From assembly GCA_963842525.1 (NCBI GenBank), contig CAWJGT010000019.1:448001-512000 (forward strand): a stretch of 64,000 bases of DNA. Direction: 5' to 3'. Position 1 is the first letter of the stretch. Each line of letters opens with the position of its first letter. Positions 875 through 45,669 of this stretch are shown one piece after another. The notes under the pieces are model-generated. The model searched no databases, had not been told where the DNA came from, and saw only the letters and a list, made by a program, of their open reading frames with translations. The position numbers and the translations under genes are program-made. Origin of the DNA: an uncultured Holophagales bacterium. Its GTDB lineage: Bacteria > Acidobacteriota > Thermoanaerobaculia > Multivoradales > UBA5704.

Positions 875-17741
<16,867 letters not shown>

Positions 17742-25500: not shown

Positions 25501-28500
25501 CGGACTACATGATCCCCACGGCCTGGGCGCTGCTCCCCGGGCTGCCTCTTTCTCCCAGCGGCAAGGTGGACCGCCGGGCGCTGGCCCGCGTCGAGCCGGA
25601 GGTCCAGGCAGGGAGCGGCGCGGCGCCGCGCGGCGCGGTCGAAGAGCTCCTGGCGCAGATCTGGACGCGGGTGCTCGGCGTCGAGCGCGTGGGTGCGGCG
25701 GACGACTTCTTCGCCCTGGGCGGGCAGTCGCTGCTGGCGACCCGGCTGACCTTCTTCGTGCGCGACAACTTCGGGGTCGACCTGCCGGTCCGCGCGGTCT
25801 TCCAGGCCACGACCGTGGCCGCGCAGGCGGAGTTGATCTCCTCCGCGCTGGCCGGCGGCTCGATCCAAAGCCAGGGAGCCGGCCCGATCCGGCTCTTGCC
25901 GAGATCACAGCGCCCGGCCGGCGAGCCTCTCCGGGCCGCAGCTCTCCTTCGCCCAGGAGCGCCTCTGGTTCCTCGACCGCCTGCTGCCGGCGAGCCCGGC
26001 CTACAACCTGGCCGCTGCGCTGCGGCTCGACGGCCCGCTCGACACCGCCGTGCTGGCTACGGCCTTCGACCTCCTCGTCGAGCGGCATGAGACGCTGCGC
26101 ACCCGCTTCCTCGAATCCCCTGAAGGCGATGGCCGGCCGGTGCAGGAGGTGGCGCCGGCCGCTCCCTTCGACCTGCCGGTGATCGACCTCTCGAGCTTCC
26201 CCGGATGCGGAGAAGGAGGCGCGCCATCTGGCGGCGGCCGATGCGATGCAGCCGTTCAACCTCGCAAGCGGGACTCTGCTGCGGGCGACCCTGCTGTGCC
26301 TGGGCCCGGAGCGGCACGTCCTGCTGCTCGCCATCCACCATATCGTCGCGGACGCCTGGTCGCTGGGCGTGCTGGTCGACGACCTGACCGCCCTCTACGC
26401 CGGCCGGCATCTGGAAAAATTGCCGGTGCAGTACGCCGACTATGCCGCCTGGCAGCGCGGCTGGCTCACGGGGGCCGAGCTGGACCGCCAGCTCGCTTTC
26501 TGGCGCGCTCATCTGGCGGACGCGCCGCGCGCCCTGGAGCTGCCTCTGGACCGGCCGCGGCCGGCGGTACAGAGCTATCGCGGCGGCGCCGTCCCGTTCG
26601 CCCTGCCGGCCGAGGCATCCGCCGCGCTCGCCGGCCTCGCGCGCAACGAGGGCGCGACCCTCTACATGGCCCTGCTCGCCGCCTGGGGGGCTCTGCTGTC
26701 GCGCCTCTCGGGGCAGCGGGACCTGGTCCTGGGCACGGCCGTGGCGAACCGCGACCGGCCGGAGCTGGAGCGGCTGATCGGGTTCTTCGTCAACACCCTG
26801 GCGCTGCGCCTCGACCTTGCAGGGGACCTGGGCTTCGCCGGGCTGCTGGCGCGGGTGCGCCGCGTGGTGCTCGACGCCTTCGCGCACCGCGACCTGCCGT
26901 TCGAGAAGCTGGTCGAGGAGCTGCACCCGGCCCGCGACCGCAGCCGCCAGCCGGTCTTCCAGGCGATGCTGACCTTTCAGAACGTGCCGCGCGGTGGGAT
27001 GGACCTCCCCGGGCTCGCGCTACGCCCGCTGGAGGTCGACAGCGAGACGGCGAAGTTCGACCTCACGATGACCCTGGTCGAGGAGGAGGGCCGGATCCTC
27101 GGCCGGCTGGAGTACGCGAGCGACCTGTTCGAGCGCGCCACGGCCGAGCGGATGGCCGGCTATCTCGCCACCCTCCTCGCCGGGATTGTTGGCTCGGCGC
27201 AGGGGAGCGTGGCCGAGCTGCCGCTGCTCTCCGCGGAGGAGCGCCGGCAGGTGCTGGAGACCGGGAGCCGGACGGCGGCGGGCTTCCCGCGCGAGGCGTC
27301 GATCCACGACCTCTTCGCCCAGCAGGCCGCGCGCCATCCGCAGGACGTGGCGGTCGTCTGCGGCGACGAGCGGCTGACCTACGGCGAGCTCGACTTCCGC
27401 GCGACCCGTCTGGCCCGCCGCCTGCGCGCCCTTGGCATCGGCCTCGAAGACCGCGTGGGCCTCTGCGCCGAACGGTCCGTCGACCTGATCGCGGCCCTCC
27501 TCGGCATCCTGCGGGCCGGCGCCGCCTACCTGCCCCTCGATCCCTCGCACCCGCCCGAGCGCCTGGCCTGGATGCTGGAAGACGGTGGGGCGCGGGTCCT
27601 GCTGGCCGACCGCCGCATCGCAGACCTTGCTGCGAACGCCGGTCCTGTGTTCGGGGTCCAGGTGCTGTTCCTCGACGAGCTCGACGTGGTCGACGAGCCG
27701 TCGTCCACGCTCCCCGACGTCTCCGGGGTCCCCGCCGAGGCCCTCGCCTATGTCATGTACACATCCGGCTCGACCGGCACCCCTAAGGGTGTGGCTGTCA
27801 CTCATCGCAATGTCGTGCGCCTGGTGCGCGGGTCCGAGTACGCGGCGATGGGCCCGGAGGAGGTCTGGCTGCAGAACGCGCCGGTGTCGTTCGACGCCGC
27901 GACCCTGGAGGTCTGGGCGCCGCTCCTGAACGGCGGCCGGCTGGTCCTGATGCCGGGCGCACGGACATCGCTCGACGACCTGGCAACGGCGGTCGGCGAG
28001 CACGGCGTGACGTCGCTGTGGCTGACCGCGGGCCTCTTCCACCAGATGGTGGACCACCGGCTGGAGGGGCTGCGCCCGCTGCGCCAGCTCCTCGCCGGAG
28101 GCGACGTGATCGCGCCGGCCCACGCCCGCCGGCTGCTGGAGGCCCTGCCGGACGTGACCCTGGTCAACGGCTACGGGCCGACGGAGGGGACGACCTTCAC
28201 CTGCTGCCATCGGATGACCGGCCCGGAGCAGGTGGGAGCTTCCGTACCCATCGGCCGGCCGATCGCCAACGCACAGGTGTACGTAGTGGACGAGGGGCTG
28301 CGGCCGGTGCCGCCCGGCGTGGTGGGGGAGCTGGTCGCGGGCGGCGAGGGCCTGGCGCGCGGCTATCTGGGACGGCCGGAGCTGACGGCGGAGCGGTTCG
28401 TGCCCGACCCGTTCGCCGGCGGTGGTTCGGAGGGGGAGGGTGAGCCCGGAGGCCGGCTCTACCGCACGGGCGACCGGGTGCGCTGGCTGCCGGACGGCAC

Positions 28501-29161
28501 CCTGGAGTTCCTGGGGCGGGACGACGGACAGCTCAAGATCCGCGGTTTCCGGATCGAGGTCGGGGAGATCGAGGCGGCCCTCGCCCGGCATCCGGCGGTG
28601 CGGCAGGCGGCGGTGCTGGCGCTGGACGACGACCGCCGGGGCGGTCGGGACGGGCGCGAGCTGGCGGCGTACGTCGCGGTGTCCGAGCCGGTGGCCGTGG
28701 CGGCGCTGCAGCGCTTCCTGCGCGAGCGGCTGCCCGACCCCATGGTGCCGTCCTCCTGGTTCCTGATCGACGAGCTGCCGCTCACCCCGAACGGCAAGGT
28801 GGACCGCCGCGTCCTCGCCGCGGCCGGGGGGGAGGCCGCCCGCTCCGGAGTGGAATACGTGGCCCCGCGTAACCCGTTGGAAGAGCACCTGGTCGAGGTC
28901 TGCGCCGAGGTGCTGGGTCTCGACCGGACGCGGGTGGGGGTGCTCGACAACTTTTTCGATCTGGGCGGCCATTCTCTGCTGGCCACCCAGCTCGCGGCGC
29001 AGCTCCGCAAGAAGTGGGGGATCGAGGTCCCGTTGCAGCTCTTGTTCGATACCGCCAACCTGGCCGAGCTCGCGGAGCGGATCACCGAACGCGAGCTCGC
29101 GGAGGTCGACGCCGAGCTGCTGGAGGAGATGCTCGCCGAGCTCGGCAAGACGACCGGTTGA
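22578..29161 (+). CDS. NRPS gene 3: C-A(Gly)-T-C-A(Val)-T, with two +1 frameshifts (about 25935 and 26200)
   Basis: GTG start overlaps the PKS stop (GTGA). C HHIVTDW; A code about DILQIGHIW (Gly-like); T GGQS. LSFAQERLWF resumes in the +1 frame near 25942, then the frame shifts again into ORF 26246..29161, whose A code DALWLGGTF is Val-like; T GGHS. Confidence 0.88.
24484..24537. repeat. Degenerate 9-bp tandem repeat CCGATC(C/G)GA, in frame before the A3 motif of the Gly module
   Basis: ccgatcggtgcgatccgaccgatcatcggaccgatcggaccgatccgaccgacc, encoding DRCDPTDHRTDRTDPTD. Confidence 0.8.
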
Positions 29162-29175
29162 GGCGGCAGGCGGCG

Positions 29176-32100
29176 GTGGATTCTGTGATAAGCCATCTGG
29201 ATCTCAACGACCGCCTGTCGCGGCTGTCCCTGGAGGAGAAGGCGCTCCTCTTCGAACGGCTGCGCCTCAGGAAGGACGAGGAGCGACGGCATGCCCCGGA
29301 GGCGGCTCTGGAGGCGACCATCCCGCGGCGCTTCCTCTCGGCCGGTACCGCCCCCTCGCCGCCGCTCTCCTTTGCCCAGCAGCGGCTCTGGTTCCTCGAC
29401 CGGCTGGCGCCGGACGATCCGAGCTACAACGTCCCGCTTGCCGCCCGGATCGAAGGGCCGCTCGACATCGGCGCTCTGCGCCGGTCTCTCGACGCGATCG
29501 TCGCCCGCCACGAATCGCTGCGCACCACCTTCGGCGTGGTCGACGGCAGTCCGGTCCAGGTCATCGCTCCCACGCTGTCGTTCCGGCTCCCTGTCATCGA
29601 TCTCGAAGGGCTCGCGGCCGCCGAGACTCACCGCCTCGGTGACGAGCTCATCGCCCGCCCCTTCGACCTCGCCGCCGGCCCGCTGCTGCGGGGCGCGCTG
29701 ATACGGTTGGGACGCGAGCGGCACGTGCTGGTCCTGATCCTCCATCACATCGTCAGCGACGGCTGGTCCCTGGGGATCCTGGTCCGTGAGCTGACGACTC
29801 TCTATCAGGAGGCCCTCCGCGGGTCCGGGGGGGACCTCGCGGCGGCTCTCCCCGAGCTGCCGATCCAGTACGCCGATTTCGCCGTCTGGCAGCGCCAGTG
29901 GCTGAGCGGCGAGCGTCTGGAGGCCCAGCTCGCCGTCTGGAAACGACGGCTGGAAGGCATGCCGCAGGTTCTGCCCCTTCCGACCGACCACCCCCGGCCG
30001 CCGGTGAAGACCTCGTCCGGCGCGACCCGCTGGCTGTCTTCCACCCCGGGTCTCGGCACGCGCCTGCAGGCCGCCGCACGCGAGGAGGGGGTCACCCCCT
30101 TCATGCTCCTGCTCGCGGTCTGGCAGACCCTGCTCCACCGTTACACCGGACAGGAGGACCTCCCGGTCGGCTCCGCGGTGGCCAACCGCAACCGGATCGA
30201 GCTGCAGGGCCTGATCGGCCTTTTCGTCAACACCCTCGTGCTGCGCGGCGATCTCTCCGGCGATCCGCCGTTCCGCGCGCTGTTGGGCCGCCTGCGCGCG
30301 GTGGCCCTGGAGGCGTTCGCGCACCAGGACCTGCCCTTCGAGAAGCTGGTGGAGGAGCTGCGGCCCGAGCGCGATCCGAGCCGCTCTCCGATCTTCCAGG
30401 TCTCGCTCTGCTTGCAGAACACGCCGCCGTCGGGCGCCGACTTCGGGCCGGACGTCCGGCTCGAGGTCGTGGACTACGACCCGGGCCTGGTGAAGTTCGA
30501 TCTGGAGGCGTCGTTCGAGCCCGGTTTGCAGGGCGAGCTGCACGGCGCGCTCACCTACGCCCGGGACCTGTTCGACACCGTAACTGCGGACCGCATGGCG
30601 CGCCACCTGGAGACGCTCCTTGCCGCGGCGCTGGAGGACCGCTCCCGCCGGCTCTCCGAGATGCCGCTCCTCACCACCGAGGAACGGCGGCAGCTCACGG
30701 CGTGGAACCGGACCGGGGCCCGCTGGCCGCACCGCGCCGGGCCGGCGGAGCGGGTCGGGGAGCACGCGGCGGCCCGGCCCGAGGCTGCCGCGGTGGTGGC
30801 GGCCGGGCGTGTCCTCACCTACGGCGAGCTCGACCGCAAGGCGAACCGGCTGGCGCACCTGCTGCGGCGCCTCGGGGCAGGTCCGGAGGTCGCGGTGGGC
30901 GTCCTGCTGCCGCGCTCGCCCGAGCTGGTCGTGGCGGCCCTGGCGGTGGCGCGGGCCGGCGCCGTCTACCTGCCGATCGATCTCGCCTACCCGGAGGAGA
31001 GGATCGCCGGCACCCTCGAGGATGCCCGGGCTCCGGTGGTGCTGACCCTGGAGGAGCTGGCGGAGCGGCACCCGGCGCTCGGTTCCGGCCGGACGGTGCT
31101 GTGCCTGGGTGATTGGATCGAGGAGGAAATGTCGACGGAGTCACCGCAGCCGCTGGGGCATGCGGAGAACCTGGCCTATGTCATCTACACCTCGGGCTCG
31201 ACCGGCCGCCCCAAGGGAGTGGGGGTGCCGCGGTCCGCGCTGGCAAACCTGATCGCCTGGCACCACCGCGATCTGCCGGTCCATCCCGGGGAGCGCTCCA
31301 CCCTCGCCGCCGGTCCGGCCTTCGACGGGGCGATCTGGGAGCTCTGGGCCTTCCTGGCCGCGGGAGCCGAGATCCACGTGCCGGAGGAGGAAGTCCGCCT
31401 TTCACCGCCGCGGCTGGCCGAGTGGCTCGCCCGCCAGCGGATCGCGCACTCGTTCCTGCCGACGCCGCTCGGCGAGGCCTTTCTCGCCGAGCCCGCGGCG
31501 GCCGCGGTCCCGCTACGGCTTCTCTACACGGGCGGCGACCGGCTGCACCGGATCGCGCGTCGCGACCTCGGCTTCTCGGTCGTCAACCTGTACGGCCCCA
31601 GCGAGACCGCGGTGGTGGCCACCTTCGAGGCAGCTTCCGAGCGGGAGCGGCCGGACCGCGACCCCTCCATCGGAATTCCCATCGCCAACGCGCGGGCCTA
31701 CGTGCTCGACTCCCGGCTCCAGCCGCTGCCCGTGGGGGTGCCTGGAGAGCTTTGGGTGGGCGGCGAGACCCTGGCGCGCGGGTACCTCCACCGGCCGGAC
31801 CTCACCGCGGCCGGCTATCGGCCCGACCCGTTCTCCGGTAGAGCGGGGGCGCGCATGTACCGCACCGGCGACCTGGCCCGCCGGCGGCCGGACGGCAAGC
31901 TGGAGGTCCTGGGCCGGATCGACACCCAGGTCAAGGTGCGCGGGCTGCGCATCGAGTTGGGAGAGATCGAGGCCGTGCTGTACGGCCATCCGGCGGTGAG
32001 CCGGGCGGTGGTCATGGTGCGGCAGGCGCCGGGGGGGCCGCGCCTCGTCGCCTATATGATCGCCGCCGCGGTGGTTACCCCCTCACCCTTATCCTCCCCC

Positions 32101-32628
32101 TCCCCCTCGCCCTCGCCCTCAGACATCGAGCTGCGGGCCTGGCTGCGGCGGCGGCTCCCCGAGCCCATGGTCCCCGCCGCGTTCGTCCGCCTCGCCGGGC
32201 TGCCGTTGACCCCGGCGGGCAAGGTGGACCGGTACGCCCTGGCCCGCCTCGCGCCGCCGCCCGCCCCGGAGCGGGAGCTGGCCGAGCCGCGCAGCGAGAC
32301 CGAGCGGCGGCTCGCCGCGGTCTGGGCCGAGGTGCTCGGCTGCGACCGGGTCGGGGTGGGCGAGAGCTTCTTCGACCTCGGCGGGCATTCGCTGCTGCTG
32401 ACCCGGCTGCAGGCGCGGCTCGCCGAGCAGCTCGGGCGCGAGGTGCCCCTACTCAAGCTCGTCGAGCACCCGACGGTCCGCGCTCTCGCCGCCTGGCTGG
32501 AGCGGGATGCTCCGGCAGCGGCGGACGGGGCGCCGGAGCCCGGCGAGGCGAGCCGCGACCGCGCCCGCCGGCAGCGTGAGGCCTTGGCGGCGCAGCGCCA
32601 GCGCCTCGCCCAGAGGGGAGCGCGATGA
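29176..32628 (+). CDS. NRPS gene 4: single module C-A(hydrophobic, Leu-like?)-T
   Basis: In-frame GTG at 29176 (or 29185) after the gene 3 stop. C HHIVSDG; A code about DGWFYGLVV; T GGHS; basic C-terminal tail RDRARRQRE. Confidence 0.88.
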   Translation: MDSVISHLDLNDRLSRLSLEEKALLFERLRLRKDEERRHAPEAALEATIPRRFLSAGTAPSPPLSFAQQRLWFLDRLAPDDPSYNVPLAARIEGPLDIGALRRSLDAIVARHESLRTTFGVVDGSPVQVIAPTLSFRLPVIDLEGLAAAETHRLGDELIARPFDLAAGPLLRGALIRLGRERHVLVLILHHIVSDGWSLGILVRELTTLYQEALRGSGGDLAAALPELPIQYADFAVWQRQWLSGERLEAQLAVWKRRLEGMPQVLPLPTDHPRPPVKTSSGATRWLSSTPGLGTRLQAAAREEGVTPFMLLLAVWQTLLHRYTGQEDLPVGSAVANRNRIELQGLIGLFVNTLVLRGDLSGDPPFRALLGRLRAVALEAFAHQDLPFEKLVEELRPERDPSRSPIFQVSLCLQNTPPSGADFGPDVRLEVVDYDPGLVKFDLEASFEPGLQGELHGALTYARDLFDTVTADRMARHLETLLAAALEDRSRRLSEMPLLTTEERRQLTAWNRTGARWPHRAGPAERVGEHAAARPEAAAVVAAGRVLTYGELDRKANRLAHLLRRLGAGPEVAVGVLLPRSPELVVAALAVARAGAVYLPIDLAYPEERIAGTLEDARAPVVLTLEELAERHPALGSGRTVLCLGDWIEEEMSTESPQPLGHAENLAYVIYTSGSTGRPKGVGVPRSALANLIAWHHRDLPVHPGERSTLAAGPAFDGAIWELWAFLAAGAEIHVPEEEVRLSPPRLAEWLARQRIAHSFLPTPLGEAFLAEPAAAAVPLRLLYTGGDRLHRIARRDLGFSVVNLYGPSETAVVATFEAASERERPDRDPSIGIPIANARAYVLDSRLQPLPVGVPGELWVGGETLARGYLHRPDLTAAGYRPDPFSGRAGARMYRTGDLARRRPDGKLEVLGRIDTQVKVRGLRIELGEIEAVLYGHPAVSRAVVMVRQAPGGPRLVAYMIAAAVVTPSPLSSPSPSPSPSDIELRAWLRRRLPEPMVPAAFVRLAGLPLTPAGKVDRYALARLAPPPAPERELAEPRSETERRLAAVWAEVLGCDRVGVGESFFDLGGHSLLLTRLQARLAEQLGREVPLLKLVEHPTVRALAAWLERDAPAAADGAPEPGEASRDRARRQREALAAQRQRLAQRGAR

Positions 32629-35600
32629 GCGGCCCCGACCGCCGTCTGGCCGGCCTTTCGGCCGAGGCGCGGGCGCAGCTCTTCGAGCGACTGCGCGCGA
32701 AGAAGTCCCAGGAGGCGGACCGCGAGCCGAAGACCCCGAGGATCGTGCCGCGCGACCGGGCGCTCGATCCGCCGCCCCTGTCCTTCGCCCAGCAGCGGCT
32801 CTGGTTCCTCGACCGGCTGCGGCCCGGCGACCCGGTCTACAACATCCCCTCGGCGCTCCGGGTCACCGGCCCGCTCGACCCCGCGGCCCTGCGCCGCGCC
32901 CTGGCGGCGGTGGTGGCGCGGCACGAGTCGCTGCGCACCACCTTCGGCCTGGCCGGGGCCGTTCCCGTGCAGGTGATCGCGCCGGCTGCGGAGGCGCGGC
33001 TGTTGCTCGCCGACCTCACCGGTCTCGCGCCTGCGGATTGCCAGATCGAGGGCGAGATTGAGCGCCTCTGCAGCGAGGAGGCCCGCCGGCCCTTCGACCT
33101 CGCGGCAGGGCCGCTGCTGCGGGTCATGCTCTTGCGGCTCTCCGCGGAGCGGCACGTCCTGCTCTTCACCCAGCACCACATCGTCAGCGACGGTTGGTCG
33201 AGCGGCGTGCTGAGCCGCGAGGTGATGGCGCTCTACAGCGGGGCGGCGCTGCCGGAGCTGCCGGTCCAGTACGCCGACTTCGCGGTCTGGCAGCGGCAAT
33301 GGCTCACGGGTGAGACCCTGGAGCGCCAGGTCGACCTCTGGCGCCGGCGGCTGACGGGCGCGCCGGCCGTGCTCGACCTTCCTACGGACCGGCCGCGCCC
33401 GGCGTTGCGGACCACGCGGGGCAGCTACTGCAAGCTGCGGCTCCCGACGGAGGCAACGGCCCGGCTCAAGGCGTGCGCCCGCGGGCTGTCGGCCACGCCC
33501 TTCACCGTCCTCCTCGCGGCCTGGCAGGCGCTGCTCCACCGCGTCACCGGCCAGGAGGACCTCTGCGTGGCCGCGCCGGTCGCCAACCGCGACCGGCGCG
33601 AGACTGCCGGCCTGATCGGGTTCTTCGTCAACACCCTGGTGCTGCGCGGCGACCTGTCGGGCGATCCGGGGTTCCGCGAGCTGGTGGCCCGGCTGCGCGA
33701 GGTGACTCTGGAGGCGTTCTTGCACCAGGACCTGCCGTTCGAGAAGCTGGTCGAGGAGCTGCGGCCGGAGCGCAATCCGGGCGTGCCGCCGCTGGCCCAG
33801 GTCTCCCTCAACCTGCTGAACACGCCGCGGGCGCAGGTGGCCGCGGGACCCCTGCAGCTCGACCCGATGCCGACCACGACCGGCACGGCCAAGTACGACC
33901 TGACGCTCACGCTGGACGAATTCGAGGAGGAGGTCTACGGCTGGCTCTTCTACAGCGCCGACCTGTTCGATGCGCCGACGGCGGCCCGGCTGGCGTCCTC
34001 TTTCGAGATGCTGGTCGCTGCCGCGGAGCCCGGGAGGCGCCTCTCCGAGCTGCCCCTCCTCTCGGCGGCGGAGCACGCTCAGATCGAGCGCGAGTGGAAC
34101 GACACACGCGATCCGGCAACGCTGCTGCCGTTCCACCAGGTCTTCGCGCAGCAGGCGCAGCGCACGCCGGACGCCGTGGCGGTCGAATCGCGGGAGCAGT
34201 CCTGGACCTACCGCGAGCTGGATGCTCTGGCAGACCGCCTCGCCGGGCACCTCCAGGGTCTGGGCGCAGGCCCCGACGTCATTGTGGCGATCCAGGCCGA
34301 CCGCTCTCTCCTTTTGGTCCTTGCTGTCCTTGCTGTCCTCAAAGCCGGCGGCGCCTACCTCCCGCTCGATCCCGCCTACCCGCGCGAGCGCCGCTCCTGG
34401 ATGCTGGAGGACGCCCGGGCGGCGGTGCTGCTGTGCGAAGGGCCTTGCGACCTGCCGTTCGCCGGCCCCGTGGTCCGGCTGGGGGAAGGCCCTGGGAGCG
34501 CCGGCGTCCCGCCGGCTCTTCACGAGGCTATGGTGCCCGGCGCAGCTCCGGGCCGGCGGGACGCCGGCGCTCCCAGGATTCCCTCGCTGGACAGCCTGGC
34601 CTATGTGATCTACACCTCGGGCTCGACGGGGGCGCCCAAGGGAGTCCTGGTGCCCCACCGGGGCCTCGCGAACCTGGCGGCGCGGATCGGCGTCTTCGGG
34701 CCCGCCGGCCCAGGCAGCCGCATCCTCCTCTTCGCGTCGCCGGGCTTCGACGCCTCGCTGCTCGACCTGGTGCTGGCCCTGGGGACCGGGGCGATGCTCT
34801 GTCTCGCTCCGGCTCGCGAGCTGCCGCGGCTCGGCCACCTCCTCTACGAGCGCGACATCACGCACCTGCACCTGCCCCCCTCGGCCCTGGCCGCCCTCGT
34901 CGAGGGCCCGCTGCCGTCGCGGCTCCGCTGCCTGATCCTCGGCGGCGAGCCGCCTCCCGAGGGCACGGCCGACCGCTGGGGAACGGGGCGCCGGCTCTTC
35001 AACGACTACGGGCCTACCGAGGCGACCGTCTTCGTCACGGTCGACGAGCTGCGGCAGGGGCGCCTCACCACCGGGCGGCCGATCGGCAATGTCGAGGTCC
35101 ACGTCCTGGACCGCCGGCTGCGGCCGGTGCCGGTGGGCGTGCCGGGAGAGGTCTGCCTCGGCGGCGACGGGGTCGCCCGCGGCTACCTGGGGAACCCGGC
35201 GGCGACGGCAGAGCGCTTCGTGCCCCACCATTCCGGTGCGCGGCTCTACCGCACGGGCGACCTCGGCCGCTGGCTGCCGGACGGCTCGCTCGTTGTCCTC
35301 GGCCGGATCGACGGCCAGGTCAAGGTGCGCGGTTTCCGGGTCGAGCCGGAGGAGGTCGAAGCGGCCCTGCGGCGCCATCCCGCGGTGCAGGAGGCGGCTG
35401 TCGTCGTCCGCGAAGGCAGCCTCGTTGCTTTCGTCGTCACGCCGGAGGCACCCGAGGGGCTGCGCGGCTGGCTGCGGGAGATGCTGCCGGCCCACATGGT
35501 GCCGGCGTCGGTGGAGATCCTGGACCGCCTGCCGCTCAACCCGCACGGCAAGGTGGACCGCCGGGCTCTCGCCGGGCGCCCGCTCGCCCGGGCCGAGGCC

Positions 35601-35963
35601 TCCGTCGCTCCTCGCAGCGAGCTGGAGGCCACGCTGGCCTCGCTGTGGGCCGAGGTGCTGGGCCTGCCACGGGTGGGCGTCGAGGAGAGCTTCTTCGACC
35701 TCGGCGGCCACTCCCTGCTGCTCGCCCGCCTCCAGACGCGCCTCGCCGAGCGGCTCGCCCGCGAGGTCCCCCTGCTCGTGCTCTTCGAGCACACGACCGT
35801 CGGTGCCCTGGCCGCCTGGTTGGAGGCGCAGGGCTCACCAGCGACAACAGCCGCACCAGCGGGGGAGGGCCGCGACCGCGCACGGCGGCAGCGTGAGTCG
35901 CTCGCGGCGCAGCGGCAGCGCCTTGCCCGCCGAGGAGAAACGGGAGGACGATGGACGACCTGA
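32625..35963 (+). CDS. NRPS gene 5: single module C-A(unknown substrate)-T
   Basis: ATGA overlap with gene 4. C HHIVSDG; A motifs YTSGSTG and NDYGPTE with an atypical code of about DALHIGDVF; T GGHS. Confidence 0.92.
34491..34577. repeat. Family-2 REP-doublet-like element with perfect 26-bp inverted arms, in frame (87 bp)
   Basis: CCTGGGAGCGCCGGCGTCCCGCCGGC (34491-34516) and GCCGGCGGGACGCCGGCGCTCCCAGG (34552-34577). Confidence 0.9.
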
Positions 35964-38900
35964 ACCGCCGCTTGGCTGGCCTTTCCCGGGAGAAGCGGGC
36001 GCTCCTCTTCGAGCGCCTGCGCGAGCAGAAGGTGGGCGCCGCGGAGCCCATGCCGAAAATCGCGCCGCGCGACCGGGCGCTCGATCCGCCGCCCCTGTCC
36101 TTCGCCCAGCAGCGGCTCTGGTTCCTGGACCGGCTGCGGCCCGGGGATCCGGTCTACAACCTCCCCTCGCCCTTCCTCGTCGTCGGGCCGCTGGACGTAC
36201 GCGCGCTGGAGCGCGCGCTGGCGGCGCTCGTCGCGCGCCACGAGTCGCTCCGCACCACCTTCGGCGCGGCAGGGTCCGTCTCCCAACAGCCGGTCCAGGT
36301 GGTCGCGCCGGCCGTTGCAGCCCGGCAGAGCCCCCCTCTGCCGATCGTCGACCTTTCCGGCCTCGACGAGGAGGTCCGCGAGCGCGAAGCCGCCCGGCTC
36401 ACCCGCGAGGAGGCGCGCCGTTCCTTCGACCTCGCCGCCGGGCCGCTGCTGCGCGCCGCGCTGCTCCGCCTGGCTCCAGGCCAGTCTCCCGACCGGCACG
36501 TCCTCCTCCTCACCCTGCACCACATCGTTGCCGACGGCTGGTCCGTCAGCGTGCTGATCCGCGAGCTGACCGCCCTCTATGCCGGCGTGGCCCTGCCGGA
36601 GCCGGCCCTCCAGTATCCGGACTTCGCCGTCTGGCAGCGGCGGTGGCTCGCCGGCGAGCTTCTCGACCGCCAGGTGGACGTCTGGCGCCGGCGGCTGGAG
36701 GGTGCGCCGGCAGTCCTCGATCTGCCGGCCGACCGGCCGCGGCCGGCGCTGCGCACCAGCCAGGGCGGGGCCTGCGCGCTGCGGCTCGGACCGGAGACGG
36801 CGGCCCGGCTCAAGACCCTCGCCCGCGCCCTCGCGGTCACGCCGTTCACCGCCCTGCTGGCGGTCTGGCAGACGCTCCTCCACCGCTGGTCCGGGCAGGA
36901 CGACCTCTGCGTCGGCGCGCCGGTGGCCAACCGCGACCGCGCCGAGACCGCCGAGCTGATCGGGTTTTTCGTCAATACCCTGGTGCTGCGCGGCGACCTG
37001 TCCGGCGATCCCACGTTCGAGGAGCTGGTGGGCCGGCTGCGGCCGGTCGCGCTGGAAGCCTTCGCGCACCAGGACCTCCCCTTCGAGAAGCTGGTCGAGG
37101 AGCTGCGGCCGGAAAGGAACCCGGGCGTGCCGCCGCTCTACCAGGTGTCCCTGAACCTCCTCAACGTGAGCACCGCGCGGCCCTCGGCGCGGACCGGCGG
37201 CCTCTGGCTGGAGTCGCTCCCGGCGGACAACGGCACCGCCAAGGTCGACCTGGCGCTCTCGTTCGAAGAGGCCGGCGACCGCTTCCTCGGTACGCTCCTC
37301 TACAGCGCAGACCTCTTCGACGCGCCATCGGCGGCGCGGCTGGCCGCCGGCTTCGCGGCGCTTGCTGGAGCGGCCACGTCGACACCGCAGAGGCGCCTCT
37401 CCGAGCTGCCCCTCCTGTCCGATGTGGAGACAGCTCAGGTCGTACGCGAGTGGAACGACACCCGGGAGGCCGGAGCAGAGGCAGCTTTGGTGCCCGAGCG
37501 GTTCCTGCGCGGGGCGGCGCTCCATCCGGAGCGGCCGGCCGTGGCGTGCGGCGACCGGAGACTCACCTATGGCGAGCTCGCCGATCGGGCCGGGGAGCTG
37601 GCGGGGCGGCTGCGCCAGCTCGGGGTCGGGCCGGAGGTGCGCGTCGCTCTCCAGGCCGAGCGTTCGGTCGAGACCGTGGTGGGGCTGCTCGCGGTGCTCC
37701 TGGCCGGCGGCGCCTATGTGCCGCTCGATCCAGCCCTGCCGACGGCCCGGCGTGCCGCGCTGATCGCGCAGTCGGGCGCGCTCCACCTCGATGACCTGCC
37801 TGTCGACATCTCTCCGGCGGACGGGCCGCTTCCGGCCGTGCTGCCGGAGCAGGCGGCGTACGTGATCTTCACCTCGGGCTCGACCGGCGATCCCAAGGGC
37901 GTGGTGGTGGAGCATCGCCAGCTCCGCCACTACGTGGACGCGGTCGGCCGCCGGCTGGACCTCCCGGACGGCGCCTCCTACGGTCTGATCTCGACCCTGG
38001 CGGCCGACCTCGGCCATACCGCGCTCTTCCCGGCGCTCTGCGGCGGCGGCTGCCTCGTCGTGGTGCCGCCGGAGCGGGCCCTCGATCCGGAGGCCTTCGC
38101 CGAGCTGGTCGCGGCGCAGCCGATCGATTGCCTGAAGATCGTCCCCTCCCATCTCGCGGCCCTGCTCTGCTCCATGCAGCCGGCGCGCGCGCTGCCCCGC
38201 GAGCTGCTCGTCCTCGGAGGCGAGGCTGCCTCTCCGGAGCTGATCGAGCGCGTCGCCGCACTGGCGCCGGGGCTGCGGGTCCTCAACCACTACGGACCCA
38301 CCGAGTCCACGGTGGGCGCCATCACCTCGCCTCTCTCGCCGACGTCGCCGATAGTCCTCGGCCACCCGCTGGCCAACGTCGAGGCCCATGTCCTCGACCG
38401 GCGGCTCCAGGTGGTCCCGCCGGCCGTCCCCGGCGAGCTCTGCCTGGCCGGCGATGGGGTGGCGCGCGGCTATCTCGGCCGGCCGGACCTGACGGCCGAG
38501 CGCTTCGTCCCCCATCCGTTCGCTGCCGGAGCGCGCCTGTACCGGACGGGCGACCTCGTGCGCTGGCGGCCGGACGGCGCCCTCGAATTCCTCGGCCGCG
38601 TCGACCGCCAGGTCAAGATCCGCGGCTTCCGCGTCGAGCCCGGCGAGGTCGAGGCGATCCTGGCCGGCCATCCGGAAGTGAGAGAATGCGCGGTCCTGGC
38701 GCTACCGGGCACGGGCGGCGCGACCCTGGCCGCCTACGTGGCAGGGGAGGCCGATCCGGAGCAGCTCCACGCCTGGCTCGCCGGGCGCCTGCATGACTGG
38801 ATGGTCCCCTCCGCCTGGACGGCCATCCCGGCCCTGCCGCTCACCACCAACGGCAAGGTGGACCGCCAGGCCCTGGCCCGGCTGGACATTGCGGCAGCCA

Positions 38901-39253
38901 GGGCCAGGGGAGCGGACGATGCGGCCCCGCGCACCTTGACAGAGGAGGCGCTGGCGGAGATCTGGTGCGAGGTGCTCGGCCTCGAACGGGTGGGCACCAA
39001 CGACAGCTTCTTCGACCTGGGAGGGCATTCCCTCCTGCTGCCGCGGGTGCAGCTCGCCGTACGTGAGAGGCTCGGCTGCGACCTTCCGTTGCTCCAGATA
39101 TTCGAGCACCCCACGGTGGGGGCGCTCGCCGCCTGGCTCGGAGGCGCGGCCGAGGCGGACCTGCCGGCGCAGGGAAGCCGCGAGCGGGTGCAGCGCCAGC
39201 GCCAGGGTCTGGAGCTGCAGCGGCAACGGTTGGCTCAGAGGAGATCGGCATGA
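35951..39253 (+). CDS. NRPS gene 6: single module C-A(Asp)-T
   Basis: GGAGG RBS before ATG 35951. C HHIVADG; A segments AADLGHT / LKIVPSH / [11 protein letters not shown] give DLTKVGHVG (Asp type); T GGHS. Confidence 0.92.
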
Positions 39254-42200
39254 CGGACGACGTGAACGGGGGCCTCGATAGCGGCCTGGACATCGCGGTC
39301 ATCAGCATGGCCGGGCGCTTTCCCGGCGCGCCGGACCTCGAACGTTTCTGGGAGATGCTGCGCGACGGCCGCGAGGGGATCTCCTTTTACTCCGAGGAAG
39401 AGATCCTGGCCCGCGGCGCCGACCCGGCGCGGGTGGCGATCGCCTCCTTCGTCCGCGCCGGCGCGCAGCTCCCCGACGTCGACCTCTTCGATGCCGGCTT
39501 CTTCGGCTTCTCGCCGCGCGAGGCCGAGCAGATGGACCCGCAGCAGCGGTTCTTCCTGGAGTGCGCCTGGGAGGTGCTGGAGCGGGCCGGCTACGACCCC
39601 GAGCGCTACCCGGGCCTGATCGGCGTCTACGCGGGCAGCGGCACCAACGAATATCTGCTGTTCCACCTGCTGCGCCACCTGACCGACCTCTCCAACGTCC
39701 TGCAGCTCACGATCGGCAACGAGAAGGACTTCCTGGCCACCCGCGTCTCCTACGAGCTGGACCTGAAGGGGCCGAGCATCAACGTCCAGACCGGCTGCTC
39801 CAGCGCCCTGGTGGCCGTCCACCTCGCCTGCCAGTCTCTCCTCGGCTACCAGTGCGACATGGCGCTCGCGGGCGGCATCTCGCTCCAGATGCCGGACGCT
39901 CCCGGCTACCTCTTCGAGCCGGGCGGCATCCTGTCGCCGGACGGGCACTGCCGCGCCTTCTCGGCAGAGGCCCAGGGCGCGGTCGCGGCCAGCGGCGTGG
40001 GGATCGTGGTCCTGAAGCGCCTGGCCGACGCGCTCGCCGACGGCGACACGATCCATGCCGTGATCAAGGGCTCGGCCCTCAACAACGACGGCGCGTCGAA
40101 GATCGGCTATACCGCGCCGAGCATCGAGGGGCAGGCACGGGTGATCGACATGGCGCAGGCCGCGGCGGCGGTCGATCCACGCTCGATCACCTTCGTCGAA
40201 GGGCACGGCAGCGGCACTCCGCTCGGCGACCCGATCGAGATGGCGGCGCTCACCCGCGCCTTCCGCGCCGGCACGGCGGACCGCGGCTTCTGTGCCCTGG
40301 GCTCGGTCAAGACCAACATCGGCCACTGCGACACCGCGGCCGGGGTCGCCGGCCTGATCAAGACCGTGCTCGCCCTGAAGCACCGCCAGATCCCGCCGAC
40401 GCTGCACTTCGAGCGGCCCAACCCGCAGCTCGACTTGGAAAGCAGCCCGTTCTACGTCAACGCCCGGCTGATCGACTGGCCGGCGGGCTCCACTCCGCGC
40501 CGCGCCGGGGTCAGCTCGTTCGGCATCGGCGGCACCAACGCCCACGTGATCGTCGAGGAGGCGCCCCTCCAGACGCCGGCCGATTCTTCCAGCGCGGACC
40601 GTGCCTGGGACCTCCTCGTCCTTTCGGCGCGCAGTGAGGAGGCCCTGGAACGGGCGACGGACAACCTCGCGGAGCACCTGGAGCGCCACCCCGGCGCGAG
40701 CCTGTCCGACGTGGCCTGGACCCTCCAGGCGGGGCGCCGCCGCTTCGCCTGGCGCCGTACGCTGGCCTGTCCGGGCGGTGATGTGTCCGAGGCGGCGCGT
40801 GCTCTGCGGGAGCGCGATCCGCGCCGGCTGCTCTCTGCCTCGGAGGAGGCGGTGGACCGTCCGGTCGCCTTCCTTTTCCCGGGGCTGGGCGATCACTACC
40901 CGGGCATGGCCGCCGGGCTCTATCGCGACGAGCCGGTCTTCCGCCGCGAGATCGACCGCTGCGCCGACGTCCTGGCGCCGCTCCTCGGCCTCGACCTCCG
41001 CCAGGTGCTCTTCCCCACGACGGAAGCCGAGGAGCCTGCGGGGATCGACCTGCGGGCCATGCTCGGCCGCCGCGATCCGCTCGCCGGCTCGCCCCTGGTC
41101 CGCACGGCCGTGGCCCAGCCGGCGACGTTCGCCGTCGAATACGCCCTGGCGCGCCTCTGGGAGAGCTGGGGGATCCGCCCGGCGGCGATGCTCGGCTACA
41201 GCCTGGGCGAGTACGTAGCGGCTGCCATGGCCGGCGTCTTCACACCCGAGGACGCCCTGCGGGTGGTCGCCGAGCGGGCGCGGCTCATTGAAGAGCTGCC
41301 GGCCGGCGCCATGCTCGCCGTGCCGCTGCCCGAGGCGGAGACCACGGAGCTGCTCGGCCGCCGGCTCTCGATCGCGGCTCTCAACGGCCCCGGGGTGACC
41401 GTGGTGGCCGGCCCGCCGGAGGAGGTGGAAGGGCTCGCGCGTATCCTCGAAGGCCGCGGCCTGGCCGCGCGCCCGCTGCCGACCACGCACGCCTTCCACT
41501 CCTGGATGATGGAGCCGGTCGCCGGCGCGGTGCGCGAGCTGCTGGCGAGCGTACGGCTGCATGCGCCGTCGCTCCCCTATGTCTCGGACGTGACCGGCGG
41601 CTGGATCACCGCCGCGGAGACGACCGATCCGGAGTATTGGGTCGCGCACCTCCTGCGGCCGGTGCGCTTCGCCGCCGGGCTCGCCGAGGTCTGGCGCGAG
41701 CCGGCGACCGCCCTTCTGGAGGTCGGCCCCGGCCAGAGCCTGGGGAGTCTGGCCGTGCAACACACCGCCGATCGGAACCGGGTCGTCGTGCCATCCCTGC
41801 GCGGTTCCTGGGAGAAGCAGCCGGACGGCGCCTTCCTGCTTGCCGCGCTCGGCAAGCTCTGGCTGGCCGGCCGCCGGGTCGACTGGGCCGGCTTCCATGC
41901 GGGGGAACGCCGCCGCCGCATCCCCCTGCCCACCTACCCCTTCGAGCGCAAGAGCTACTGGGTCGGTGGCGCGCGACGCTCCGGTCCGGCGCCGGTGCCG
42001 CTGTGGGCCGTCGCGGACCAGCCTGCCCCGGCAGCCGAGCCCGCGCTGGCGGCGGCGCCGGCAGCCCGGCATACGCGCCCAACACTGCGCAACGCCTTCG
42101 TGCCTCCCGGCACCGAGCTGGAGCGCGCATTGGCGTCGCTCTGGGAGCGGCTGCTGGGGATCGAAGGGATCGGCCTGCACGACAACTTCTTCGAGCTCGG

Positions 42201-45200
42201 CGGACATTCACTTCTCGGCACCCAGCTCGTTAATTTGGCGCGCGAGGTGCTGGGCGCGGACCTGCCGCTGGAGGCGCTCTTCGCGACGCCCACCGTGGCC
42301 GGCATGGCCGCGGCCGTCGCGGCGGCTCGCACCGGCTCGGCCGGCCAGGCGCCGCAGCTCGTACCGGTCGGGCGCAGTGAGCGGAAGGGTGACCTGCCGC
42401 TCTCCTTCGCGCAGTCGCGGATGTGGTTCCTGCACCAGCTTGCCCCGGGCTCGCCGGTCTACAACATCCCCTTTGCCGTCCGGCTGGCCGGCGCGCTCGA
42501 CCCGGCGGCCCTGACCGCCGCGGTGCGGGAGGTCGTGCGCCGGCACGAGGCCCTGCGCACCACCTTCCACGACGTGGGAGGCCGCCCTGCGCAGGCGATT
42601 GCGCCGCCGGAGGCTGCCGTGTCGCAGGTCGTGCCGGTGATCGACCTCGGGGCGCTCCCCGCCGGAGCGCGCGAGGCCGAGCTGCGGCGGCTCGGCGCCG
42701 AGAGCGCCGGGCTCCCCTTCGACCTGGCGCGCGGGCCGCTGCTCCGGCTCGGGCTCGTCCGCCTGGAGGGAAGGGACCACGCCCTGCTGCTCAACATGCA
42801 TCACATCATCTCGGACGGCTGGTCGATGGGCGTCTTCGTCGGCGAGCTGGCGGCGCTCTACGAGGATCTGCGCTCCGGCCGGCCACCTTCCCTGCCCGCG
42901 CTGCCGATCCAGTACGCCGACTTCGCGGACTGGCAGAGCCGCTGGCTCTCCGGCGAGGTCCTGGAACGCCATCTGGCCTGGTGGCGCGGGCGGCTGGAGG
43001 GGAAGCCCGCGACGACCGAGCTGCCGTTCGACCGGCCCCGGAGCGAGGCCGGCGCCGCCCTGCGCGCCGTGGCCGGCAAGCGCCGCCTCGTCGTGCCCGC
43101 CGGGCTGACCTCGGCGCTGCGCGCCCTCGCCGAGCGCGAAGGGGTGACGCCGTACATCGTCCTCCTCGCGGCGTTCGACGCCGTGCTCGCCCGGTATGGA
43201 CGGCAGGACGACATCTCGGTCGGGACGCCGACCGCCAACCGCACCCGCGCCGAGGTCGCTGGGCTGATCGGCTTCTTCGTCAACACCCTGGTGCTGCGGG
43301 TCGATCTTGCGGGCGATCCGACCTTCCGCGAGCTGGTCGGCCGCGCGGGGGAGGCGGCCCTCGGCGCCTTCGCGCACCAGGACCTCCCCTTCGAGAAGCT
43401 GGTCGAGGAGCTGCACCCCGAGCGCGCGCTGACGGTCACCCCCCTGTTCCAGGTGATGTTCTCCTACCAGAACGCGCCGCTGCCGCGGATCGAGCTGCCG
43501 GGCCTGACCCTCTCCGGCGTCGAGTCCGACACGGCGACCGCGATGTTCGACCTCACCCTGACGACCGGGGAAATCGGGGCCGGCCCCGACGCGGGCGGCC
43601 TGCGGCTGACCCTCGAATACGCGAGCGCGCTGTTCGAGGCCGCGACCGCGGAGCGCATGCTCGGTCACTTCGCGCACCTGCTCGCCGCGGCGGTGGCCGA
43701 GCCCGGCCGGCGCCTCTCCGCCCTCCCGCTCTGCTCCGAGGCCGAGCTCTTCCAGCTCCTGGCCGAATGGAACGACACGGAGGCGGACGCGCCGGATGTC
43801 CTCCTGGCCCACCAGCTCGTGGCCGCCCGGGCCGCGGCCGACCCGGAGGCCCTCGCCGTGGCGGGTGGCGGCGAGCGCCTGAGCTATGGAGAGCTGGATG
43901 CGCGGGCCGGCCGGCTGGCATGCCACCTGCGTGAGCTGGGGATCGGGCGGGAGGCCGCTGTCACGGTCTGTCTCGAGCGCTCTCCCGCCTTGTTGGTGGC
44001 CATGCTTGCCGTCCTGAAGACAGGCGGCGCCTACCTGCCGCTCGACCCGGCCTATCCGCCGGAGCGGCTCGCCGGCATCCTGGCCGAGGCCGCGGCGCCG
44101 CTCGTCCTCACCCGCGAAGGGCTGCGCGATCGCCTGCCTGTGGAAGTGTCCGGCGCCCGGGTGCTCGCCCTGGACTCTCTTGATCTTCCCCCCTCTCCCG
44201 GTGGATCGGGAGTGCGGATGGGAGAGGGGGGCCAGGGGGGTGACGGCCTCGCCTACGTCATCTACACCTCGGGCTCGACCGGCGTGCCCAAGGGGATCGA
44301 GGTGACGCACGGCTCGCTGCGCAACCTGATCACCTGGCACCACGGCGTCTACGGAATCCGTCCCGGCGACCGGGCGGCGCTGATCGCCGGTCCGGGGTTC
44401 GACGCCTCGGTCATGGAGATCTGGCCGCTCCTCGCGGCCGGAGCGAGCATTCACGTGCCGGACGACGAGACGCGGATCGCGCCCCGGCGGCTCCTCGACT
44501 GGCTCGTGCGCGAGCGGATCACCCTCTGTTTCCTGCCGACGCCGCTGGCCGAGCTGGTGCTGCGCGAGGAGATGCCGGCTGGCCTGGCGCTGCGGGCGCT
44601 GTTCACCGGCGGCGACAAGCTGATGCGCGGGCCGCGGCCGGGCCTGCCGTTCCCGGTCTATGACCACTACGGGCCGGCCGAATGCACGGTGGTGACCACC
44701 TGGACACCCGCCCCGCCGGACCCGGCCGCGCCCTCGATCGGAAGGCCGATCCGCAACGACCGCGTCTACCTGCTGGACCGCGACCTGGCGCCCGTCCCGC
44801 TCGGCGCGCCGGGCGAGCTGTTCTGCGGCGGCGGCGGCCTCGCCCGCGGCTACCGCCGGCGGCCCGACCTGACCGCCGAACGGTTCGTCCCCGACCCGTT
44901 CGCGCCGGGCGGGCGACTCTATCGCACGGGCGACCTCGCCCGCTTCCGGCCGGACGGCATGCTGGAGTTCCTCGGCCGCCTCGACGACCAGATCAAGGTC
45001 CGCGGCTTCCGCCTCGAGCTGGGCGAGGTGGAGGCGGCGATCACCCGCCATCCGGGCGTTGCGGCCTGCGCGGTGGTCGCCCGCCGGGATGACCGCGGCG
45101 ATGTGAGGCTGGCGGCCTACGTGGTCCCCGAAGCGGCGCTGGAAGAGCCCCCGATCCAACTAACCGGCTCCGATCTGCGCCGCGCCCTGCGCGCCCGCCT

Positions 45201-45669
45201 GCCCGAGCACATGGTGCCGGCGGTCGTTGTGCTGCTGGATGCCCTGCCGCTCACCCCGAACGGCAAGATCGACCGCCGGGCCCTGCCCGAGCCGCCCGCC
45301 GCCCAGGCCGCCGGCGCCGGCGGGCACGTCCCGCCGCGGACCGCGGTCGAGGAGGAGCTGGCCCGCATCTGGGCCGGGCTGCTGGCGCTGCCGTTCGACC
45401 GCGTGGGGGTGAACGACAACTTCTTCGACCTGGGCGGTCATTCGCTGCTGGCCACCCAGTGCGTCGCCCAGGTGCGGGAGCGCCTGGGTGCGGAGATCCA
45501 GCTCCAGAGCCTGTTCGGCAATGCGACTCTTGGTGAAATCGCCGACGCCATCGTCGAGGCCGAGCTGCGGCAGGTGGACCAGGACTCGCTGCGCGAGATA
45601 CTCGCCGACTTCCAGGGGCTGGACGAGGAGGCGCTGCAGGCCCTGCTGGCGGGAGAGGAGCCGCGTTGA
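39250..45669 (+). CDS. Hybrid PKS-NRPS gene 7: KS-AT-ACP-C-A(Leu-like?)-T
   Basis: ATGA overlap. KS VQTGCSS / EGHGSGT / IGHCDT; AT GYSLG and HAFH; no reductive domains; ACP GGHS; C HHIISDG; A code about DAMFFGHVV; T GGHS. Confidence 0.93.
44186..44246. repeat. Family-1 half element just before the A3 motif (gene 7)
   Basis: TTCCCCCCTCTCCCGGTGGATCGGGAGTGCGGATGGGAGAGGGGGGCCAGGGGGGTGA; matches the right arm at about 60170-60222. Confidence 0.88.

Follow-up and report, generated by a model that had tools for sequence, protein, structure and literature searches.

Genes 4, 5 and 6 of a nine-gene assembly line, which joins non-ribosomal peptide synthetase (NRPS) and polyketide synthase (PKS) modules, lie side by side in the 64,000-nucleotide stretch of DNA analyzed here (the window, G000:C19:448001-512000; 73% G+C), part of an acidobacterial genome of 9.95 Mb (G000). 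All three carry the same two connectors, an N-terminal helix ahead of the condensation (C) domain and a basic C-terminal tail behind a carrier (T) domain of the subtype that otherwise precedes a ketosynthase (KS), and judged by their sequences they appear to be docking-equivalent single-module NRPS cassettes. The best reading of these features, and one that we hold tentatively, granting it somewhat less than an even chance, is that the three genes work in parallel, each linking gene 3 to the gene 7 KS. Independently of that reading, the carrier-domain subtype and the charge of the tail predict the downstream partner almost without exception, which makes the docking logic readable from sequence in these Acidobacteriota rich in biosynthetic gene clusters.

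Connectors and carrier domains of genes 4 to 6

Searched against Pfam at E<=0.001, genes 4 to 6 yield only Condensation, AMP-binding, AMP-binding_C and PP-binding, with no docking domain among the matches. Their heads are 48-63 aa long with one helix-like stretch and share the core L(S/A)xLSxExxAxLFERLR, and their tails share the core R(D/E)RxxRQRxxLxxQRQRLAxR with a net charge of +4 in gene 4, +6 in gene 5 and +4 in gene 6. A preliminary description of this DNA had reported both strings, and the translations contain them at the places it gave. It had also described the remaining junctions correctly: basic tails lead into a KS (1->2 and 6->7), and the helix-headed genes 3, 4 and 8 each stand behind an acidic tail, that of gene 2, 3 and 7 respectively. 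Five junctions (1->2, 2->3, 3->4, 6->7 and 7->8) are thus consistently paired, either as a basic tail with a KS stub or as an acidic tail with a helix head. The two others, 4->5 and 5->6, place a KS-type T domain and a basic tail ahead of a helix-headed C domain, and it is at these that strict matched-pair colinearity fails in this line. That they are mismatched had been claimed at the outset; they prove to be the only exceptions in the genome, where a basic tail faces a basic head at no other junction. With net charges of +4 and +3, heads 5 and 6 are basic as other heads are, and hence give no sign of adaptation to a basic tail. As far as sequence classes tell, the acidic tail of gene 3 and the acidic KS stub of gene 7 would belong to the classes that are paired elsewhere with such heads and tails. 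A specificity code that would separate the tail of gene 3 from that of gene 7 was looked for, and no clear partition was seen in the heads and tails compared.

To place these junctions in the context of the genome, all carrier domains of G000 were sorted by what follows them. A motif search gave 359 hits, 321 of which pass a hidden Markov model trained on the unambiguous hits. A C domain comes next in 170 cases in cis and in 30 in trans, a KS in 15 in cis and in 13 in trans; 22 domains lack a neighboring partner, and the remaining 71 were labeled “cis other”. In a FastTree phylogeny of the 321 domains, those of genes 1, 4, 5, 6 and 9 fall into one clade of 35 members (support 87). This KS-type clade holds 15 of the 15 domains labeled as feeding a KS in cis, four “cis other” domains relabeled to the same class on account of a variant KS motif, nine of the 13 that feed a KS in trans, and five basic-tailed domains, that of gene 9 included, that lack an adjacent partner. 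In total, 28 of the 32 KS-followed domains lie inside the clade. C-followed domains contribute only two of their 200, both from the triplet (genes 4 and 5). The same picture is given by a position-wise log-odds classifier from whose training set genes 4 to 6 were left out: C-followed domains score below zero in 198 of 198 cases (maximum -7.8), and KS-followed domains above zero in 27 of 31, the four exceptions being another type of T domain and tail. Genes 4, 5 and 6 of G000 score +29.6, +11.0 and +10.1, so that the first two are as KS-like as the third, and the orthologue of the gene 3 T domain in the related genome G003 scores -29.7 and is thus of the C type.

The tails follow the same division. 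Where members of the clade feed a KS in trans, the tail is net positive in nine of nine cases and the KS stub (~8-19 residues, its charges counted by hand from the sequence strings) is net negative in nine of nine. The tails of T domains that feed a C domain in trans are mostly acidic or near-neutral; apart from genes 4 and 5, a charge of at least +3 occurs in two cases, C14:98983, an apparently frameshifted T domain, and C18:31209, which has a different, mixed-charge tail. The anomaly of connectors and T type in genes 4 to 6 is therefore not due to chance. Their T domains are sisters, so that it counts as one or two evolutionary events and not as independent ones.

Linkers between T domain and KS in cis are short and have no basic helix, with one exception, C3:560344 (minus strand), in which the linker combines a basic helix with an acidic stub and resembles the split pair C18:17912, as though a docked pair had been fused. 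Four further T domains of the KS type carry a basic tail with no adjoining KS gene (C9:1348860, C9:1017110, C20:64489 and C30:33509), a hint that docking to non-adjacent partners is common in G000, where those partners may lie elsewhere.

In a search of 41 related genomes the orthologues were confined to the same genus. G003:C133 has genes 1-7, ordered as in G000 and 58-68% identical at the protein level, with genes 4, 5 and 6 separate and provided with the same heads and tails; G001:C489 has genes 4-7, again with the same heads and tails, gene 4 being cut by the contig end; and G005:C36 has gene 7 together with the last part of gene 6. In G000, G003 and G001 alike, the triplet's T domains score as KS-type (nine of nine, +9.5 to +41.4). 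An alignment of these nine T domains with their tails has 31 invariant columns, and the tail residues R88, R93, L96, Q99, R100 and R102 are identical in all nine. Across ~60% protein identity, two other species have thus retained both connectors and the T type of genes 4 and 5.

When this alignment was used as a query against 61 genomes of the family, 30 loci were returned, of which 21 feed a KS in trans and three in cis, two lack a partner (one at a contig end, one before an unrelated gene) and three could not be parsed. The claim that the basic tail and its T subtype accompany KS-headed partners therefore holds genome-wide as well as family-wide, by tree, classifier and family loci. At one locus, L143 (G024:C1:1658167-1659924), a basic-tailed KS-type T domain precedes a gene with a C-like start and a KS ~480 residues later; this N-terminal domain has no HHxxxDG motif and is unusual in front of a KS. 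The 150 best matches in the 61 family genomes were inspected by eye and contained no further gene pair at most 3.5 kb apart on one contig besides the orthologues of genes 4-6 in G000, G003 and G001, which makes the triplet peculiar to this cluster within the sample. Among the best-matching public relatives of the query, metagenome-assembled genomes of Thermoanaerobaculia are prominent and include the two top hits. A broader contig search with the same alignment was too unspecific, its 80 loci being mostly ordinary T domains that match the generic pattern SFFDLGGH; within it, KS-type T domains with SLL(L/M/V) lead to a KS in six of six cases (L033, L037, L042, L045, L065 and L093), and the basic-tailed T->C cases L078 and L108 have another tail type on SLLA T domains. 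Fused serial forms were sought among longer homologues of the gene 5 A (adenylation) domain, the best of which is 51% identical, with no orthologue found; a similar-length search gave nothing above 51% except the query itself. Both searches were crowded by generic NRPS matches, and the absence of fused or other orthologues is accordingly a weak result.

A candidate branch point ahead of gene 7

What differs between the three modules is the A domain. Out of 243 C domains in the genome, theirs form an exclusive clade (support 99), within which genes 5 and 6 are closest to each other, and their C and T domains are sister paralogues. The A domains are only 40-51% identical between the paralogues and 59-70% between orthologues, and the nearest relatives of each sit elsewhere in the genome. 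The pocket residues, read at positions mapped from the GrsA numbering, are DGWFYGLVVK for gene 4 in G000 and DGWF(Y/C/A)G(L/C)V(V/M)K across genomes; those of gene 5 (DALHIGDVFK) and gene 6 (DLTKVGHVGK) are identical in three genomes, and the latter we take to be Asp-like by the usual code. With pockets conserved or nearly so between species, each A domain would appear to have been kept by selection. Common head, C, T and tail interfaces around three different, conserved A domains fit a cassette design.

If the genes are alternatives, the line would branch after gene 3, and in each round one of the three would accept the chain. The entry connector would be the amphipathic, net-basic N-terminal helix, taking the chain from an acidic tail such as that of gene 3, and the chosen module would add its own residue, of a hydrophobic type (gene 4), unknown (gene 5) or of an Asp type (gene 6). 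The exit would be formed by the KS-feeding T subtype and the basic helical tail, which would hand the chain to the acidic-stubbed KS of gene 7, where the branches would rejoin; congeners would differ at one position. The case for this rests on usage. The tails and heads on either side of junctions 4->5 and 5->6 are conserved and hence presumably in use, and parallel use gives every conserved element its usual partner, which suggests that the three modules are alternatives for one slot. We infer that the connectors bind in this way from their anatomy, their association with particular partners and their conservation. Parallel action had been proposed in the preliminary description, and its premise (connectors, T type and conservation) stands; the parallel use itself is still a proposal. 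The docking logic appears clear and conserved, and its function is what we infer from it.

Parallel use would also offer a simple origin. A tandem duplicate of a gene encoding C-A-T and tail could work at once as a parallel copy and would then be free to change its A domain. A serial role would require a KS-type T domain to feed a C domain from the outset, and remodeling of the junction would then be expected; none is seen at 4->5 or 5->6 in three species.

Several observations weigh against parallel use, and most directly they favor colinear serial use, in which genes 4, 5 and 6 add three consecutive residues before the ketide unit of gene 7, a possibility that we regard as real and on the unlikely side. 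Colinearity is the rule in characterized assembly lines and serial use the default for adjacent, translationally coupled NRPS genes, and genes 4, 5 and 6 follow each other in order with overlaps of 4 and 13 nt that suggest such coupling. The like heads, tails and T domains could on this account go back to tandem duplication and owe their continued likeness to gene conversion: since the T and C domains are sister paralogues, their shared type may have been inherited rather than selected, and there are signs of homogenization within genomes, the C domains of genes 5 and 6 being 71% identical in G000 and 67% in G003, as compared with 59-63% between orthologues, and the T domains of genes 4 and 5 76% identical in G000. 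The C domains of genes 5 and 6 group apart from that of gene 4 in all three genomes, as expected if they shared a KS-type T domain as donor; that the C domains and heads of these two genes are closer to each other than to those of gene 4 would likewise fit a shared donor different from that of gene 4. Transfer from T4 to C5 and from T5 to C6 would have to take place without matched docking, and many NRPS junctions do function without recognized docking elements, or else the basic tail would also have to bind the helix head. Two further points against parallel use are of another kind. First, the three candidate residues appear chemically very different for one KS to accept. Second, genes 1 and 3 are frameshifted in this assembly, so that the line may be inactive in this genome.

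The serial account, however, has to explain why the KS type is absent from the remaining 198 T domains that precede a C domain in the genome, and why tail and head are both net basic at 4->5 and 5->6. It further has to accommodate the fact that the tails and heads meeting at these two junctions stay canonical in three species, with neither decay nor co-adaptation. Finally, if canonical basic tails did bind canonical heads, cross-talk among the many lines of this genome would be predicted.

An improbable alternative is looping, in which gene 4 would pass the chain from gene 3 to the gene 7 KS. Through its acidic tail, gene 7 would send the chain back to the head of gene 5 or 6, which would feed the same KS again, and the product would carry residue-ketide-residue units in repetition or come as a series of different lengths. 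In genes 5 and 6 the head (LAGLS...) is nearly identical to that of gene 8, the colinear partner of the gene 7 tail, and resembles it more than the head of gene 4 does; the differences between heads are small, however. Gene 7 keeps its acidic tail in G003 and G005, in which no NRPS motif was seen after it (over ~35 kb in G003, up to position 105269 of the reversed contig, and over the 3 kb inspected in G005), but these assemblies are fragmented and a partner may lie elsewhere, and in G000 and G001 a helix-headed C gene stands right after gene 7. The set of connectors in G003 (four basic tails and two KS heads, three acidic tails and four helix heads) is untraversable once each under strict pairing. 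Against looping as a whole, nothing in the sequences would order the visits. Quite apart from this, the downstream partner of gene 7 varies between species, being present in G000 and G001 with none seen in G003 and G005 over the stretches just given.

There is also a slim chance that both ideas combine into a network defined by docking, in which three cassettes would feed the gene 7 KS and the tail of gene 7 would return the chain to heads 5 and 6. Gene 7 would then be a bimodule that is visited more than once, one operon could give rise to a library varying in the identity of the residue and in the number of residue-ketide repeats, and the line would be an NRPS-PKS counterpart of rhabdopeptide-type stochastic assembly. 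A non-colinear order in which extra KS-headed genes are interposed among genes 4, 5 and 6 was rejected as the main explanation; the G003 contig contains only two KS genes, and beyond gene 9 in G000 a further NRPS module and KS appear only at the contig end, after a ~16-kb stretch with a Mu-like transposase and small genes.

Comparison with known docking systems

The vatiamide pathway is reportedly one in which alternative subunits with near-identical docking elements compete for one partner, one cluster giving several products; its branch is said to lead from one PKS module to three NRPS modules and not to rejoin. Genes 4 to 6 resemble that type in forming a set of at least two candidate alternative subunits with near-identical docking elements, and they do so in three genomes. 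Unlike in the reported vatiamide case, entry and exit connectors are both triplicated here and the branches would rejoin at one KS; the type of docking also differs, and the shared junction here would be that of an NRPS T domain with a PKS KS. Docking-encoded branching in the vatiamide pathway of Moorena was described by Moss et al. (2019, Angew Chem), as cited in PMC10127204.

The rhabdopeptide/xenortide (RXP) synthetases Kj12ABC are single-module NRPSs whose docking elements permit non-linear, stoichiometry-dependent use and give rise to peptide libraries; their subunits dock to one another by way of a structured domain at the N-terminus, which forms a beta-sheet with the partner's C-terminal residues (PMC6195595). 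Genes 4 to 6 are similarly single C-A-T modules by Pfam. Their heads, in contrast, show a single short helix-like stretch and no Pfam docking domain, so that a structured N-terminal domain of the RXP kind was not found. The beta-hairpin docking domain of RXP type we take to be the Pfam family TubC_N. The partners differ as well, being here an upstream acidic tail and a downstream KS. As head and tail of genes 4 to 6 are both basic, self-docking and iteration are not expected, unlike in RXP.

Compared with canonical multi-subunit NRPS-PKS lines, the present one is alike in its five consistently paired junctions and differs at 4->5 and 5->6, which break the pairing. The excerpted text of a review (PMC9113145) lists class 1 and class 2 PKS, COM, PAX and beta-hairpin docking and does not name, among these classes, the docking of a basic carrier-domain tail to a KS stub. 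In the depsipeptide lines that make histone deacetylase (HDAC) inhibitors (FR-901375 and the romidepsin group), a docking interface lets a conserved part serve variable partners; according to PMC13324335, that variation lies between clusters of different organisms and at a PKS-to-NRPS interface, whereas here three variants stand within one operon. A narrow literature search found no description of this cluster or of a docking class in which a basic carrier-domain tail meets a KS, and we make no claim that either is undescribed.

Should genes 4 to 6 be true alternatives, they would form a natural converging branch point at an NRPS-to-PKS hand-over, with three carrier domains competing for one KS, and one cluster could yield several related molecules. 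The basic tail and the acidic KS stub would then constitute a portable connector pair, and the triplet would be a ready-made template for exchanging A domains while the C and T interfaces stay fixed; both would be useful for the engineering of hybrid lines. The products of a line of this kind would be mispredicted by genome-mining tools that rely on colinearity.

Layout of the line and its surroundings

Nine plus-strand genes were delimited in the window from a plot of third-position G+C (GC3) by frame and from the translations (Table 1).

Table 1. Genes of the assembly line and their connector regions, in window positions
Feature	Position	Strand	Description
Gene 1	875-17741	+	AMP-ligase-like loading region at start; T domain and basic tail at end
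Gene 1, last T domain and basic tail	17475..17741	+	KS-type, GGNSLLL; member of the KS-type T clade
Gene 2	17761-22581	+	KS-AT-KR-ACP (Pfam), acidic tail
Gene 3	22578-29161	+	Two modules, acidic tail
Gene 3, last T domain	28952..29161	+	C-type, GGHSLLA; short acidic tail ELAEVDAELLEEMLAELGKTTG
Gene 4	29176..32628	+	C-A-T (Pfam), 1150 aa, GTG start
Gene 4, parts	head 29176-29364, T 32293-32508, basic tail 32509-32625	+	From translation
Gene 5	32625..35963	+	C-A-T (Pfam), 1112 aa; start overlaps gene 4 stop by 4 nt
Gene 5, parts	head 32625-32777, T 35616-35831, basic tail 35832-35960	+	From translation
Gene 6	35951..39253	+	C-A-T (Pfam), 1100 aa; 13-nt overlap with gene 5
Gene 6, parts	head 35951-36094, T 38933-39148, basic tail 39149-39250	+	From translation
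Gene 7	39250..45669	+	KS-AT-ACP-C-A-T (Pfam); acidic C-terminal tail
Gene 7, N-terminal stub before KS	39250-39291	+	Short, acidic, 14 residues
Gene 8	45666-61676	+	Helix-headed C gene directly after gene 7
Gene 8, head helix	45666..45827	+	Near-identical to gene 6 head; follows gene 7 acidic tail
Gene 9	starts 61673, ends ~1.36 kb past window	+	Basic tail

The last T domain of gene 3 is the presumed donor for the helix heads. The frame of gene 1 changes once, near 16800-16970 in this assembly, and that of gene 3 twice within ~300 nt (25916-26210), where the G003 orthologue is one intact frame of 2212 aa. Because of these changes the true ends of both genes were read in frames other than those of the long open reading frames, and it is in the frame after the shift that the last T domain and basic tail of gene 1 are read, directly ahead of the gene 2 KS, which starts at 17761. 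The frameshifts either arose in the assembly or are true lesions, which would inactivate the line in this genome.

By motif spacing, an A domain is missing between a C domain and the next T domain at one place in gene 1 (6308-7796) and at another in gene 8 (52443-53940). No thioesterase (TE) domain was seen in genes 1-7, which makes a gene for a 241-aa hydrolase-like protein at G000:C19:446676-447311, ~1.5 kb upstream of gene 1 and outside the window, a candidate for a trans-acting release enzyme. It is the only flank conserved between G000 and G003 (68% identity).

Gene 9 has no adjacent KS gene to receive its basic tail, and the ~16-kb stretch lies directly beyond it. The interval G000:C19:513363-529685 encodes small proteins, the Mu-like transposase (rve, Mu-transpos_C) and helix-turn-helix (HTH) proteins, and NRPS/PKS sequence resumes after it; this looks like a mobile insertion that splits the line. 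The ends of two contigs, G000:C19:523703-534190 and G000:C18:37201-47695, are 98.4% identical over 10.5 kb, the mark of either a recent duplication or the binning of a strain variant into this assembly. C18 also carries a gene 8-like gene (80-86% DNA identity) and a gene 9-like gene, which are followed there by a KS gene.

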